Source: Mycobacteriales bacterium (GTDB lineage Bacteria; Actinomycetota; Actinomycetes; Mycobacteriales; JACQDL01). Taken from it: a DNA stretch of 64,000 nt. The stretch lies in assembly GCA_035476575.1 (NCBI GenBank), contig DATILL010000065.1:49149-113148 (forward strand). The letters run 5' to 3'. Both the position numbers and the translations under genes were made by a program. Below, one piece after another: positions 10,950-13,294 of the stretch. Numbering within the stretch: position 1 is the stretch's first letter; each line of letters begins with the position of its first letter. The notes below the pieces were generated by a model. It was not told the origin of the DNA. It saw only the letters and a program-made list of their open reading frames with translations, and searched no databases.

Positions 10950-11253
10950 CGGGCGTGCGCCGGGGGCGGGTCGCGGCGTGGCAGACTCCACCTCATGTTG
11001 CGCTGGATAACCGCGGGGGAGTCGCACGGCCCCGCGCTGGTCGCCGTACTCGAGGGGCTGCCGGCCGCGGTGCCCGGATGAGCTTCGAGCGGGACGAGGT
11101 CGAGCTGACCGGCGGGGTCCGGCACGGGGTCACGATGGGCGGCCCGGTCGCGATCCGGGTCATGGCCGTCGACCCGGTCGACCCGGACGAGCTCGCCAGC
11201 CTGGCCCGCAACGCCCCCCTGACCCGGCCCCGCCCCGGCCACGCCGACCTGGA
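10950..11253 (+). pseudogene. aroC: Decayed duplicate of the aroC 5' end plus about 40 nt of upstream leader
   Basis: The nucleotide sequence is near-identical to 12072-12470, apart from two internal deletions. Read from ATG 10995 it gives [28 protein letters not shown] and then a stop. Confidence 0.85.
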
Positions 11254-11454
11254 ACATGTGGGCGCGGGCCTATCCGCCCCGGCCGGCAGGAGATCCCGTG
11301 CCTGGTCCGGGACGGCGACGTCGTCCCGGACTGCACCACCTCGTTTCCGCAGGTCAACGGGGGGTGGGACGGTGGGACAGTTCTTGTAGGTCGGCGCTGT
11401 CCCACCTCCGCTACGGACATGCGACACTGGCCAGGGACAAGGAACGGAGGTGCG

Positions 11455-11640
11455 ATGACGACCAGCAACCCCGATCACACCGCGCTGCCTGAGCCGCTCA
11501 CCGTCGAGGAGCTGTTCCGGCACGTCCAGCCCATCCGGTCGGCCGACGACCTCGCCTGCGAGGGCATCTTCGAGACCGACGCCGAGCTGGACGAGTTCCT
11601 TGCGCACGTGGTGACAGCGCGACACTCCGATCTTGCATGA
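11455..11640 (+). CDS. Putative type II antitoxin (VapB-like, 61 aa)
   Basis: ATG 11455 follows a GGAACGGAGG RBS. The protein is small and acidic. Its stop overlaps the PIN-toxin start (ATGA at 11637-11640). Confidence 0.55.
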   Translation: MTTSNPDHTALPEPLTVEELFRHVQPIRSADDLACEGIFETDAELDEFLAHVVTARHSDLA

Positions 11641-12028
11641 AGCGCATCGTCCTCGACACCGACGTTGCCTCTCTCAGTCTCAAGCATCGGCTGCCGCCGA
11701 CCACAGCGGCCCGCCTCGTGGGCTGGCAGCCAAGCGTTACCTTGGGCGAGCTGACACAATGGGCGGAGCTACGCCAGTGGGGACAACGAAACCGCGGGCT
11801 TCTCGACAGTGGCTTTCCGGGGTAGCCGTGCTCCCCTGCACCAGCGAGGTGGCACGGACCTGGGGACGGATTTCCGCCTCGGCAGTACGGCGCGGCCGGC
11901 CACGTCCACAGAACGACACGTGGATCGCAGCCTGCTGCCTCACCTACGGCTTCCCGTTGGCAACGCTGAACCTGAAGGACTTCGCCGACTTTGCCGAACA
12001 CGAAGGTCTGAGGTTGCTCGGCAGTTGA
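11637..12028 (+). pseudogene. vapC: PIN-domain toxin VapC, frameshifted
   Basis: The N-terminus MKRIVLDTDVAS (PIN Asp) is in frame 11637-11825. The rest (WLSGVAVLPCTSEVARTWGRI..NDTWIAACCLTYGFPLATLNLKDFADF) is in the frame of ORF 11633-12028. The frame changes near 11800-11815. Confidence 0.7.
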
Positions 12029-12115
12029 CCCGAGCCCCGACTTCACTGTGACATGGCGCGGTGAACGTCGTAGGGGTGCGCTGGGGCGGGGTCGCGGCGT
12101 GGCAGACTCCACCTC

Positions 12116-13294
12116 ATGTTGCGCTGGATAACCGCGGGGGAGTCGCACGGCCCCGCGCTGGTCGCCGTACTCGAGGGGCTGCCGGCCGGCGTGCGGGTCA
12201 GCTCCGGGGGGATCGCCGACGAGCTGGCCCGCCGCCGCGCCGGGTACGGTCGCGGTGCCCGGATGAGCTTCGAGCGGGACGAGGTCGAGCTGACCGGCGG
12301 GGTTCGGCACGGGGTCACGATGGGCGGCCCGGTCGCGGTCCGGGTCGGCAACTCCGAGTGGCCGAAGTGGGAGGTCGTGATGGCCGCCGACCCGGTCGAC
12401 CCGGACGAGCTCGCCAGCCTGGCCCGCAACGCCCCGCTCACCAGGCCCCGCCCCGGCCACGCCGACCTGGTCGGCATGCAGAAGTACGGCGCGACCGACG
12501 CCCGGCCGATCCTGGAACGGGCCAGCGCCCGGGAGACCGCGGCCCGGGTCGCGGTGGCCACGGTTGCCCGGGCGTTCCTGGCCCAGGCGCTCGGCGTCGA
12601 GGTGGTCAGCCACGTCGTCGCCATCGGCATGGTCAGCGCACCGGACGGCGTCGTCCCCGGCTCGGCCGACCGGGCCGCGGTCGAGGCGTCGCCAGTGCGC
12701 TGCTTCGACGCCAAGGCCAGCCAGCTCATGGTCGAGGAGATCGACGCCACGAAGCGGGCCGGTGACACCCTCGGCGGCGTCGTCGAGGTCGTCGCGTACG
12801 GCCTGCCGCCCGGCCTGGGCAGCTTCGTGCACGGCGACCGCAAGCTGGACGCGCGGATCGCGGGCGCGCTGATGGGCATCCAGGCCATCAAGGGCGTGGA
12901 GTTCGGCGACGGTTTCGGGCTGGCCCGGGTCCGCGGCTCGCGCGCCCACGACGAGATCGAGAACACCCCCGACGGCGTACGCCGGACGACCGGCCGCGCG
13001 GGCGGTGTCGAGGGCGGCATGAGCACCGGCGAGCCGCTGCGGGTGCGGGCCGCGATGAAGCCAATCTCCACCGTGCCGCGCGCCCTGGCCACGATCGACG
13101 TCGCGACCGGCGAGCCGGCGGTGGCGATCAACCAGCGCAGCGACGTGTGCGCCGTACCGGCCGCCGGGGTGGTGGCCGAGGCGATGGTCGCGCTGGTGCT
13201 CGCCGACGCGGCGCTGGAGAAGTTCGGCGGCGACTCGGTGGCCGAGACCCGGCGCAACGCCGAAGGATACCTGGCCAACCTGGTGATCCGGTGA
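12116..13294 (+). CDS. aroC: Chorismate synthase
   Basis: 392-aa ORF with [25 protein letters not shown] and [13 protein letters not shown] motifs. It sits in conserved aroCKBQ synteny. Confidence 0.95.

Follow-up and report, generated by a model that had tools for sequence, protein, structure and literature searches.

A duplicated aroC 5' end beside a vapBC cassette, a probable scar of commonplace recombination at a hotspot of gene exchange

Direct repeats of a housekeeping-gene end that bracket foreign DNA and leave the gene intact are known from phage 21 and e14 at icd, integrative elements whose insertion site is a protein-coding gene and which bring along a substitute for the end of that gene. 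These elements have an integrase and a short att core within a longer diverged duplication, usually replace the 3' end of the gene and span tens of kilobases. Campbell-type single crossover of a circle carrying a 5' gene fragment leaves a truncated 5' copy, the insert and the full gene in that order, with one illegitimate junction. Chromosomal toxin-antitoxin (TA) modules are reportedly stabilisers of neighbouring DNA, as in superintegron cassettes. In M. tuberculosis H37Rv, vapBC modules presumably lie between the A24-like peptidase gene Rv2551c / aroE and aroF (Rv2540c); that genome, with the gene order that we take it to have, resembles the locus described here in its aroE-A24 ... aroC/aroF-aroK-aroB-aroQ neighbourhood with TA modules in the same interval, and we know of no duplicated aroF fragment there. 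Rv2546 and Rv2549c have been described as VapC toxins (PMC3126847). The VapBC families of the two loci differ.

A displaced-module logic that operates by homology-facilitated illegitimate recombination was put forward for T6SS effector-immunity and Rhs modules (Kirchberger et al. 2017, PMC5361080), with de Vries & Wackernagel 2002 and Prudhomme et al. 2002 given there as earlier sources. The T6SS, Rhs and CDI orphan modules resemble our locus in several respects: a variable slot adjoins a conserved gene, incoming DNA would pair by homology at one end and be joined illegitimately at the other, the toxin-related genes already in place are kept, partial copies of the conserved gene lie as direct repeats, and there is no dedicated recombinase. 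In both cases the mechanism is a deduction. The anchor of those modules is part of the toxin gene and their arrays grow downstream, whereas what is repeated at our locus comes from an unrelated housekeeping gene (its promoter and 5' end) and the kept module is a type II TA pair.

We analysed a stretch of 64,000 nucleotides (the window) from a short-read metagenome-assembled genome (MAG) of a Mycobacteriales bacterium, in which the 5' end of the chorismate synthase gene aroC is present twice around a vapBC cassette. With a probability of roughly 0.75, the upstream fragment, aroC', is a by-product, without function, of recombination by the host in a hypervariable slot just upstream of a compact, leaderless aroC promoter, beside a long-resident vapBC and with no element-encoded recombinase. 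We read it as the kind of scar that commonplace recombination leaves where genes are often exchanged, and not as the trace of a mobile element that came in recently. The only other lineage found to carry the cassette, also directly upstream of aroC, is an organism represented by two records, L089 and L091. The features of the locus are as follows.

188 to 876, plus strand: type IV prepilin (A24) peptidase gene (Pfam Peptidase_A24, 1.3e-11; membrane-protein features)
877 to 10951, no strand: lineage-specific island DNA, ~10 kb (Pfam and NCBIfam matches)
8340 to 10702, minus strand: graspetide cluster, within the island DNA upstream of aroC'
10952 to 11252, plus strand: aroC' pseudogene fragment, from promoter position -43 to codon 118 (repeat search, gapped alignment)
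10952 to 11065, matching 12073 to 12186: repeat block 1, 110/114 identical
11066 to 11161, matching 12251 to 12346: repeat block 2, 94/96 identical
11162 to 11251, matching 12380 to 12469: repeat block 3, 86/90 identical
10979 to 10987, plus strand: copy of the predicted extended -10, TGGCAGACT, 7 nt before the ATG at 10995 and identical to 12100 to 12108
11253 to 11419, plus strand: spacer with no detectable relatives, absent from L089
11420 to 12061, plus strand: vapBC cassette common to L089 (87.6% nucleotide identity to L089 9220 to 9878)
11420 to 11428, plus strand: putative extended -10 of vapB, TGCGACACT; a Shine-Dalgarno site is also present in the cassette
11455 to 11640, plus strand: vapB, 61 aa, with an ATGA overlap with vapC
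11637 to 12028, plus strand: vapC, a PIN/VapC gene with a one-base loss near 11808, followed by the 33-nt tail of the cassette
12062 to 12115, plus strand: native-looking aroC promoter region, with the predicted extended -10 at 12100 to 12108; the repeat begins at 12073
12116 to 13294, plus strand: intact aroC, chorismate synthase, 392 aa (Pfam Chorismate_synt, 2.8e-114)
downstream of aroC, up to 15349: aroK, aroB and aroQ (SKI, DHQ_synthase and DHquinase_II domains)

A repeat search with gapped alignment aligned aroC' (10952-11252) with 12073-12469 in three colinear blocks with 290 of 300 positions identical, covering -43 to +354 as counted from the ATG of aroC (12116); the first 354 nt of aroC form the downstream copy. 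The upstream copy has lost 64 nt at 11065/11066, which shifts the frame, and 33 nt at 11161/11162, and its residual ORF (10995-11081) ends after 28 codons with a stop as codon 29 (11079-11081). It lies ~1.1-1.2 kb upstream of intact aroC in direct orientation, and the 820 bp between the copies (11253-12072) contain vapB and the PIN/VapC gene at a GC of 0.65-0.69, lower than in aroC. This bears out the anatomy first described from the letters, namely a repeat with two deletions and an early stop around an antitoxin gene and a frameshifted PIN gene. The copies differ by ~2-3%, share a longest exact repeat of 100 nt and are the sole gene-fragment repeat within the window. Divergence is higher at the left edge, where 4 of the first 16 nt are mismatched, compared with 6 of the remaining 284 (Fisher p = 9.5e-4). 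The six coding differences, four synonymous and two conservative, are evenly split between the copies after outgroup polarisation, a pattern that fits divergence between two working alleles. The product of intact aroC is 100% identical to a protein (P0121) of a Mycobacteriales MAG. aroC' itself is a pseudogene fragment beside a decaying TA pair and has no obvious physiological role.

Metagenome scaffolds can carry false duplications, and a short-read assembler could have joined strain variants or duplicated a region to give the window; L087, a record with an internal aroC duplication, may be such a case. An independent assembly, however, contains the same structure: a 931-bp Logan contig (L107) of run SRR9648393 is 100% identical to window 11188-12118, with its ends in exact-repeat stretches, and covers the junctions of aroC' with the spacer and of the cassette with the promoter, the vapC frameshift between them, and copy-specific variants. 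Because both junctions and the vapC frameshift are thereby reproduced, we consider the prospect of an assembly artefact, which the original prediction had named as fatal to its claim, to be negligible. Further, no exact repeat is as long as the k=141 of the source assembly as deduced from the contig names of a sibling MAG, the private deletions and frameshift of the upstream copy would not be expected in any working strain variant, and the same kind of architecture occurs in both records of the other organism.

The ~40 nt of aroC "leader" in the original description are better regarded as promoter DNA. An extended -10 of the form TGnnAnnnT ends 6-7 nt before the aroC start codon in 72 of 82 relatives, where 1.5 would be expected, and this position implies a leaderless aroC mRNA; the repeated 43 nt are predicted to be the compact aroC promoter. 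The motif emerged from the comparison of relatives, and a consensus promoter and terminator scan of 10700-12200 returned nothing, while a search of 10400-12300 for known RNA families gave only a sub-threshold ASdes match. The downstream promoter copy matches the aroC upstream region of L088, a genome of the clade in which an island lies directly against aroC without vapBC, out to -53 (5/2000 shuffles as good) and appears to be the native one. We also considered the flank upstream of aroC' as the native aroC context as in L088; this match was not significant (701/2000 shuffles), and it is the segment from -53 to -29 of the downstream copy that matches instead.

The module between the copies is probably a type II VapBC pair, as judged from its PIN domain and translationally coupled upstream antitoxin gene, with a broken toxin gene. 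The one-base loss near 11808 splits vapC into a 62-aa ORF and a C-terminal ORF and leaves no intact toxin. Once the frameshift is repaired, the product scores 29.4 bits against Pfam PIN (cut-off 23.6) and aligns over its full length at 70-75% identity with members of a 133-aa actinobacterial VapC family (best matches 73-74%), with D7, E38, D94 and D115 invariant. VapB matched no Pfam or NCBIfam model and is 54% identical to small genes preceding VapCs of this family. The vapC orthologue of L089 is intact (135 aa). No close copy of the cassette was recovered in a plasmid search, and PADLOC gave no matches among the island proteins and the TA pair. A search for identical cassettes beside other gene 5' ends had been suggested; the nearest relatives outside L089/L091 (VapC or VapB at <=74% identity) lie in unrelated contexts without duplicated gene ends.

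Comparison with L089 dates the cassette. Between the window and L089, vapC has a dS of 0.39 with dN/dS of 0.06 (Nei-Gojobori), and the flanking aroC, aroK, aroB and aroQ have dS values of 0.41, 0.46, 0.42 and 0.40. Since vapC has diverged as much as the aro genes and occupies the same position in L089, the cassette is an old resident, far older than the 2-3% divergence of the aroC repeat. The idea of a recent integration that brought a replacement 5' end finds no support, in view of this age and of the native look of the downstream promoter; the alternative of a duplication-mediated capture of the TA cassette has the order reversed, the cassette having been there already when the aroC fragment came to lie, or was renewed, next to it. 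Higher raw nucleotide identity of vapB (94%) and vapC (91%) than of aroC (86%) had suggested recent horizontal transfer of the cassette from one of the two lineages to the other, a candidate that we rejected because the vapC dS is at host level (0.39). Only vapB, with a dS of 0.095 between the window and L089, is anomalously low (p = 6e-4).

Fragments of the aroC 5' end are seen in both lineages that carry the cassette. In L089, decayed and already heavily deleted fragments lie just upstream of vapB, and the distal one starts at ~-47, nearly the same left limit as that of the window repeat (~-43 to -53); this limit is where conserved aroC upstream sequence ends among relatives. The right junctions differ: in the window, aroC' ends at +354 and is followed by the unrelated 167-nt spacer, whereas in L089 the fragment runs to +432 and there abuts the vapB promoter. 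In the window tail we detected nothing significant of aroC +355 to +432, and the junction at 11252/11253 has no detectable homology beyond. Each lineage's fragment is closer to its own aroC than to the fragment of the other lineage, and the L089 fragments have states of the L089 lineage that arose after it parted from L088. Likeness of paralogues within a genome and mosaic divergence are both seen, in two lineages whose right junctions differ, the first pattern being one that independent duplications would also give. The original prediction would have failed had relatives shown the same structure with both copies under selection; L089 does have the same architecture, but its upstream copies have decayed and are not under selection. 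The L089/L091 organism also has a tandem duplication at the aroC locus, with a ~7.65-kb unit; the copies meet at vapC codon 16, and the colinear repeats are 75-91% identical. Remains of vapC, sought in L088 and to the left of the distal fragment of L089, would have supported ancestral presence or a tandem origin; nothing significant emerged, and P0122, tried as a route to a closer relative, led to a distant aroC with an internal duplication.

The A24 gene is the conserved left flank of a variable interval. It lies directly upstream of aroC (<400 nt) in 42 of 84 relatives, L090 with 73 nt among them, and in the window the two are separated by ~11.2 kb of variable islands. Different islands occupy the interval in L088, L089 and the window, which makes it a recurrent landing zone, as had been surmised. 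The island at 877-10951 contains a frameshifted Crp regulator, a 245-aa ORF, a 1752-aa TPR protein and the graspetide cluster, at a GC of 0.58-0.70 compared with 0.75 in the aro operon. Its content adjoined aroC in none of 80 species representatives, and only the 3' part of the TPR gene recurs, in L088. The ATP-grasp protein had no close relative with useful context, the ATP-grasp cluster having only a 49-aa fragment beside an IS110 transposase. The absence of an integrase had been noted from the letters; likewise, we found no integrase, recombinase or transposase domain among the ORFs tested from A24 to aroC and downstream to 26.5 kb, several of which have no Pfam match, and no tRNA gene.

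For the host recombination scar we tentatively favor a specific route, at somewhat less than even odds: homology-facilitated illegitimate recombination during island replacement, with vapBC kept in place. We infer its donor, left crossover and order of events. The recipient chromosome would have begun as [old island]-vapBC-promoter-aroC, and a conspecific donor would have carried a different island, that with the graspetide cluster, directly against its own aroC promoter. Donor DNA would have replaced the region left of vapBC, with a homologous left crossover in shared upstream sequence and an illegitimate join of the right end at 11252/11253, upstream of vapBC. The donor fragment may have overshot into its own aroC, so that promoter and 118 codons came to repeat, in direct orientation and from 1.1-1.2 kb upstream, the start of the resident aroC, and the functionless aroC' would then have lost 64 and 33 nt at short imperfect repeats. 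If donor and recipient differed only upstream of the promoter, the left limit of the repeat would be expected at the promoter edge; it is found there, at -43 to -53, where conserved aroC upstream sequence ends, and the other boundary, 11252/11253, lacks homology. Right junctions that differ in two lineages fit separate illegitimate joins. Genomes with an island against aroC and no vapBC exist in the clade, as L088 shows, and the ORFs tested include no integrase or transposase; no tRNA gene was found either. Against this route, a donor-type haplotype with the graspetide cluster directly against intact aroC was not found (no record of the graspetide precursor exists), recombination of this kind is rare and would be needed independently in both cassette-bearing lineages, and the synonymous bias of the copy differences rests on six sites. 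In addition, a gene-conversion tract is at least as natural an account of the rise of divergence in the left 16 nt, and plain tandem duplication also operates at the aroC locus, as L089 indicates.

The gene-conversion tract belongs to the main rival, in which a single duplication aroC'-vapBC-aroC predated the window/L089 split and was refreshed in each lineage by RecA-mediated conversion from functional aroC, the last tract here running from ~-28 to +354 before the two deletions. Direct repeats 1.1 kb apart are good conversion substrates; the excess at the left edge (4/16 against 6/284) is the pattern of a tract boundary, and in both lineages a fragment with nearly the same left limit lies directly upstream of the vapB promoter and is closest to the aroC of its own genome. 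The differing right junctions would nonetheless require an extra rearrangement, with no trace of +355 to +432 in the window tail, conversion would be needed independently in two lineages, and non-functional DNA would have had to outlast deletional bias for a dS of ~0.4, when the L089 fragments were heavily deleted in a much shorter time. We consider this history unlikely, though a serious contender. In-situ tandem duplication of a unit 11253-12470 (spacer, vapBC, promoter and aroC 5' end) by unequal exchange, followed by deletion of the left cassette to leave -43 to +354, appeals to the commonest spontaneous rearrangement in bacteria and to the ~7.65-kb tandem unit of L089/L091 at the same locus, and would account for direct orientation and a single novel junction at 11252/11253. 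It takes two events, makes it a coincidence that the deletion ended at the promoter edge, as does the L089 left limit, and predicts uniform divergence if recent, where the left edge is instead ~10 times more diverged; of the supposed unit only the aroC part occurs twice in the window, and the repeat search and comparison with relatives found no second cassette or remnant upstream of 10952. We regard it as improbable.

A vapBC-bearing integrative element that inserted into the aroC 5' end, by site-specific or Campbell-type integration, and brought a replacement 5' end would make the upstream copy the displaced original. The classical footprint known from icd and the lower GC between the repeats speak for it, and Campbell-type integration yields exactly the arrangement of the window. 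Such integration would need a circle with vapBC and an aroC 5' end, and the arrival of the insert at repeat formation is contradicted by dS unless conversion is invoked. None of the distinguishing properties of phage 21 and e14 is present: neither integrase, excisionase nor tRNA gene was found, only 820 bp lie between the repeats, and these are 300-400 bp long with ragged ends in place of a short att core. The repeat is younger than the DNA between its copies, the downstream promoter looks native, and the same element was seen neither at the same att site nor elsewhere, the cassette being common to L089/L091 only. A recent integration is therefore very improbable, although such an element could still account for how the cassette first arrived, long ago.

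The scar illustrates how one can be misled by the end of a gene that is found duplicated on either side of a cassette: where the bracketed DNA is older than its brackets, the footprint neither dates nor explains the arrival of the cassette. It also marks a recombinase-free hotspot in Mycobacteriales-like actinobacteria whose right edge would be set by the compact leaderless promoter. Insertion upstream of ~-50 is possible without silencing aroC, and this may be the reason for the build-up of TA modules and biosynthetic clusters between A24 and aroC. A further, decidedly unlikely proposal gives the TA pair an active part. Double-crossover island swaps between the left flank and aroC would delete an addictive vapBC at the aroC promoter and kill the recombinant; survivors would be the rare recombinants that joined upstream of vapBC and dragged in the donor's aroC promoter and 5' end, making such fragments recurrent selected outcomes. 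If true, a chromosomal TA pair would filter island turnover at a hotspot, leaving housekeeping-gene 5' fragments as a diagnostic trail, and recurrent fragments would offer a testable handle on whether chromosomal TA modules bias island exchange. As with the superintegron stabilisers, the TA pair sits in a variable array and has outlasted its neighbours. Unlike theirs, its toxin gene is frameshifted in the window genome, so any stabilising effect would lie in the past.

Between aroC' and the cassette lies the spacer, for which no relatives were detected. When 11253-11410 was compared with aroC beyond codon 118 and with the tails of the L089 fragments as possible degenerate relatives, 238/500, 355/500 and 214/2000 shuffles scored as well, and both candidates were rejected; a shared CCTATCC is a hint only. 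The spacer does contain a 13-bp GC hairpin (~11303-11331; fold z = -2.8) and a perfect 10-bp inverted repeat at 11371-11406 that is unique in the window.

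A repeat search of the window, followed by gapped alignment, resolved a duplication of the aroC promoter and 5' end into three colinear direct-repeat blocks that bracket a vapBC cassette, as had been read from the sequence.

Direct repeats and genes at the aroC locus (window positions)
10952-11065 = 12073-12186, direct, repeat block 1, 110/114 identical
11066-11161 = 12251-12346, direct, repeat block 2, 94/96 identical
11162-11251 = 12380-12469, direct, repeat block 3, 86/90 identical
11455-11640, vapB, 61 aa, ATGA overlap with vapC
11637-12028, vapC, split by the loss of one base near 11808
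12116-13294, intact aroC, 392-aa chorismate synthase (Pfam 2.8e-114)

The repeat extends from -43 to +354 relative to the aroC start (118 codons) and was the sole gene-fragment repeat detected by a repeat scan of the 64-kb window. The downstream copy belongs to the intact aroC, which is followed by genes for shikimate kinase, dehydroquinate synthase and type II dehydroquinase. The upstream copy, aroC', carries the two internal deletions and early stop originally described: it lacks 64 nt, causing a frameshift and a stop at 11079-11081, and a further 33 nt, with short imperfect repeats at both deletion sites. Ten substitutions separate the copies, four within the first 16 nt and six coding, of which four are synonymous and two conservative (V75I, A91V). 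The first 16 nt are about 10 times as diverged as the remainder (Fisher p = 9.5e-4), and exact repeats reach 100 nt at most. An AroC with 100% identity to the window protein occurs on a 133-kb contig of "MAG TPA Mycobacteriales bacterium", from which it follows that the window comes from short-read metagenome assembly. An identical VapB is encoded on a 931-bp contig (L107) from an independent Logan assembly of run SRR9648393. This contig is 100% identical to window 11188-12118 and includes variants specific to the upstream copy, the junction at 11252/11253, vapB, the split vapC and the junction into the downstream promoter copy; both its ends fall within exact-repeat stretches, as expected of a small-k assembler. 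The duplicated structure is not an assembly artefact, a danger raised by the original prediction, and we give assembly error hardly any weight as its source.

Between the copies lie only the small antitoxin gene and the frameshifted PIN toxin gene, as first noted. When repaired, VapC scored above the Pfam PIN threshold and fell within a large actinobacterial group of ~133-aa VapC/FitB-like toxins (best matches 73-74% identity). Its acidic residues are kept, and its three-residue gap is not a lesion, since an intact family member has the same gap. The partners of this toxin family are 61-68-aa proteins without a Pfam model, to which the window VapB is 54% identical. The pair belongs to a large VapBC family, and its toxin is broken here; the module appears to be decaying in this genome, vapC being frameshifted, as confirmed in L107. 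The 167 nt separating aroC' from the cassette contain two strong hairpins and had no detectable relatives.

The same cassette is found directly 5' of aroC in a related ENA contig, L089 (window 11418-12060 versus L089 9220-9878, 87.6%), where vapC is intact; a further record from this organism, L091, is 99.9% identical. By the Nei-Gojobori method, dS between the window and L089 was 0.41 for aroC, 0.46 for aroK, 0.42 for aroB, 0.40 for aroQ and 0.39 for vapC (dN/dS 0.06), indicating that the cassette diverged in step with the host genes under purifying selection. Judged by these distances, vapBC is an old orthologous resident of the site. The exception was vapB, with a dS of 0.095 and four synonymous differences versus ~14 expected (p = 6e-4), for which recent local exchange or nucleotide-level constraint is possible. 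Identity is 97-98% from the second half of vapB into the beginning of vapC (window 11500-11660 versus L089 9300-9460), against a dS of ~0.4 for the rest of vapC and other genes between these two genomes. The original prediction had proposed looking for the cassette beside other genes; apart from L089/L091, no close copy was present in the collections searched, and more distant relatives sit in unrelated contexts.

Fragments of aroC also lie 5' of vapB in L089.

aroC fragments in L089 (L089 positions)
1398-1567, distal fragment, aroC -47 to +86 plus the same tail as the proximal one (+351 to +432)
9015-9215, proximal fragment, aroC +95 to +235 and +351 to +432

The distal fragment precedes another vapB copy and vapC codons 1-16, and both fragments meet the vapB promoter region at one identical point. 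L089 1-9500 (L091 480-10250) is a decayed tandem duplication with colinear repeats 75-91% identical. Its ~7.65-kb unit consists of an island, an aroC fragment, vapB and vapC codons 1-16, with the junction falling within vapC; ~5.5 kb was later lost from the left copy. These units imply an L089 ancestor arranged as island - aroC'(-47 to +432) - vapBC - aroC, on this reconstruction the same architecture as in the window. The left limit of the fragment is similar in both lineages (~-47 in L089, -43 to -53 in the window) and lies where conservation of the DNA 5' of aroC ends. The right junction differs: L089 is joined directly at +432, whereas the window continues from +354 into 167 unrelated nt. 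Each fragment resembles the aroC of its own genome, the window copies being 97% identical and the L089 fragments 85-89% identical to L089 aroC. The L089 fragments bear states that arose after the split from the related locus L088 (aroC identity 92% between L088 and L089, ~86% between either and the window).

The original prediction was that an element had integrated into aroC, bringing vapBC and a replacement 5' end. A recent integration would give cassette and repeat equal age, and the vapC dS shows instead that the cassette is older. Moreover, the supposedly imported downstream promoter copy is the one that matches L088, out to -53 (5/2000 shuffles equal), whereas the flank of the upstream copy has no comparable match. 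The locus lacks the marks of a site-specific integrative element: we found no recombinase among the ORFs tested, discordant ages of insert and repeat, no recurrence elsewhere, and repeats several hundred bases long with ragged ends, unlike an att core. We therefore regard integration as very improbable; an ancient event supplying the aroC 5' end is conceivable, although nothing requires it. We favor, with a probability of roughly three in four, a by-product of host recombination beside a long-resident cassette, without element-encoded machinery. Three routes, all compatible with a pre-existing vapBC-aroC arrangement, could have produced it; a share of the probability goes to none of the explanations weighed here.

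Our tentative preference among these, held at somewhat below even odds, is island replacement through a homologous crossover combined with an illegitimate one. The segment brought in would have carried a different island abutting the donor aroC and run on into that aroC, and this single event would yield the structure without topological difficulty. It would explain the left limit at the promoter edge, the lineage-specific right junctions, the likeness between each fragment and the aroC of its species, and the synonymous-biased differences spread evenly over both copies. Suitable donors exist in the clade (L088), and displaced effector-immunity and Rhs modules have been proposed to arise along these lines (PMC5361080). 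Such modules, displaced by homology-facilitated illegitimate recombination, resemble the aroC' structure in mode of working, while Campbell integration products resemble it in outline. The weak points of island replacement are that a rare process is needed twice and that a search through the graspetide genes found no donor haplotype. One old duplication held similar by gene conversion would account for the fragment in both lineages and for the excess divergence of the first 16 nt. We consider it unlikely, as it requires an extra rearrangement for the differing right junctions and a useless fragment lasting a dS of ~0.4, whereas the L089 fragments are badly eroded over a much shorter time. Tandem duplication was demonstrably active at the locus in L089, but its use here, with later loss of the left cassette, seems improbable: two events would be required, with the deletion ending by coincidence at the promoter edge, and divergence between the copies should be uniform. 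A speculative and rather improbable reading is that an addictive toxin-antitoxin module filters island swaps, leaving aroC fragments as a repeatedly arising surviving outcome.

A TGnnAnnnT motif ends 6-7 nt 5' of the aroC start codon in 72/82 related loci (L001-L090), versus 1.5 expected by chance. From established actinobacterial promoter architecture, this is a putative extended -10 element positioned for a leaderless transcript, and aroC appears to be expressed in this way across these actinobacteria. The ~40 nt originally called a leader are indeed repeated (from -43), but the motif identifies them as promoter. TGGCAGACT is present in both window copies (10979-10987 and 12100-12108), and 26 nt 5' of vapB stands the similar TGCGACACT, where homology to the L089 cassette starts. 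The cassette appears to be served by a conserved extended -10 element of its own. Promoter and start codon are intact in aroC', which probably gives rise to a leaderless RNA encoding a 28-residue peptide and running into a hairpin at ~11303-11331. Expression of aroC would be independent of DNA upstream of ~-50, which is likely why this position tolerates insertions. A crossover between the repeats would remove vapBC. An intact aroC would result only from exchange within the first 114 nt, since crossovers further right import the 64-nt frameshift.

The interval between aroC and the A24 prepilin peptidase gene is a hotspot, variable across relatives when compared as originally suggested. In L090 (AroC 86% identical) the order is alaS-ruvX-mltG-aroE-A24-aroC-aroK-aroB-aroQ with an A24-aroC spacer of 73 nt, and A24 ends <400 nt from aroC in 42/84 loci examined. 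The closest relatives differ from the window in content: L088 (88%) has the TPR gene and a WD40 gene there, and L089 (87%) a different 7-kb island. The distance in the window is 11.2 kb, of lower GC content than the aro operon, containing a frameshifted Crp regulator, a 245-aa ORF, a 1752-aa TPR protein, a graspetide cluster, aroC' and vapBC.

Features of the A24-aroC interval (window positions)
188-876, A24 prepilin peptidase gene
912-1840, plus strand, Crp/Fnr-type regulator (cNMP_binding + HTH_Crp_2) split into two overlapping frames
2013-8005, plus strand, 245-aa ORF, then 1752-aa protein with TPR repeats only
8340-10702, minus strand, graspetide-type RiPP cluster
8340-9524, minus strand, PCMT-family O-methyltransferase of the cluster
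9449-10444, minus strand, MvdD-like ATP-grasp ligase of the cluster
10454-10702, minus strand, graspetide precursor, 83 aa (NCBIfam TIGR04186 GRASP_targ)

In agreement with the earlier reading, no integrase was found among the ORFs tested in the region, nor a transposase or tRNA gene. In M. tuberculosis H37Rv, toxin-antitoxin modules lie in what is presumably the corresponding interval, which would fit the hotspot idea. Rv2546 and Rv2549c have been described as VapCs (PMC3126847).

With the regulator, two frameshifted genes occur within 11 kb, the other being vapC. The TPR gene falls to a GC of 0.58 toward its 3' end and has ~510-nt internal tandem repeats (6804-7755); its 3' 3 kb are 80% identical to a gene also upstream of aroC in L088. 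The protein looks like a STAND or conflict-system protein, with no Pfam match other than TPR and no PADLOC match. In a JGI contig (L108), a gene fragment 92% identical to the ligase adjoins an IS110 transposase. Just 3' of aroQ (15860-22609, plus strand) lies a second, RiPP-like cluster with a BTAD regulator, an APH-like kinase, a HopA1-lyase/LanC fusion protein and an S8 subtilase, resembling a class V lanthipeptide system with split enzymes; the aro operon is therefore variable on both flanks. Among related loci, the 520-aa AroC of a forest-soil scaffold (L087 480-2042) has an internal stretch of 128 residues duplicated in tandem, possibly through misassembly, and one MAG (L080) has two full-length aroC genes (10001-11176 and 15635-16816) 5.6 kb apart. 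Intergenic arrays of a GGTGACCACA-containing motif, 3-5 copies each, occur at window 12-147 and 52922-53007, one of them directly 5' of the A24 gene, the place of aroE in relatives; a regulator may bind to these arrays. Three copies of a 69-nt palindromic element (TCCCGACGATCATCGA ... TCGATGATCGTCGGA), at 25011-25079, 35557-35625 and 63204-63272, are 75-77% identical to the reference copy and form a dispersed REP- or MITE-like repeat.
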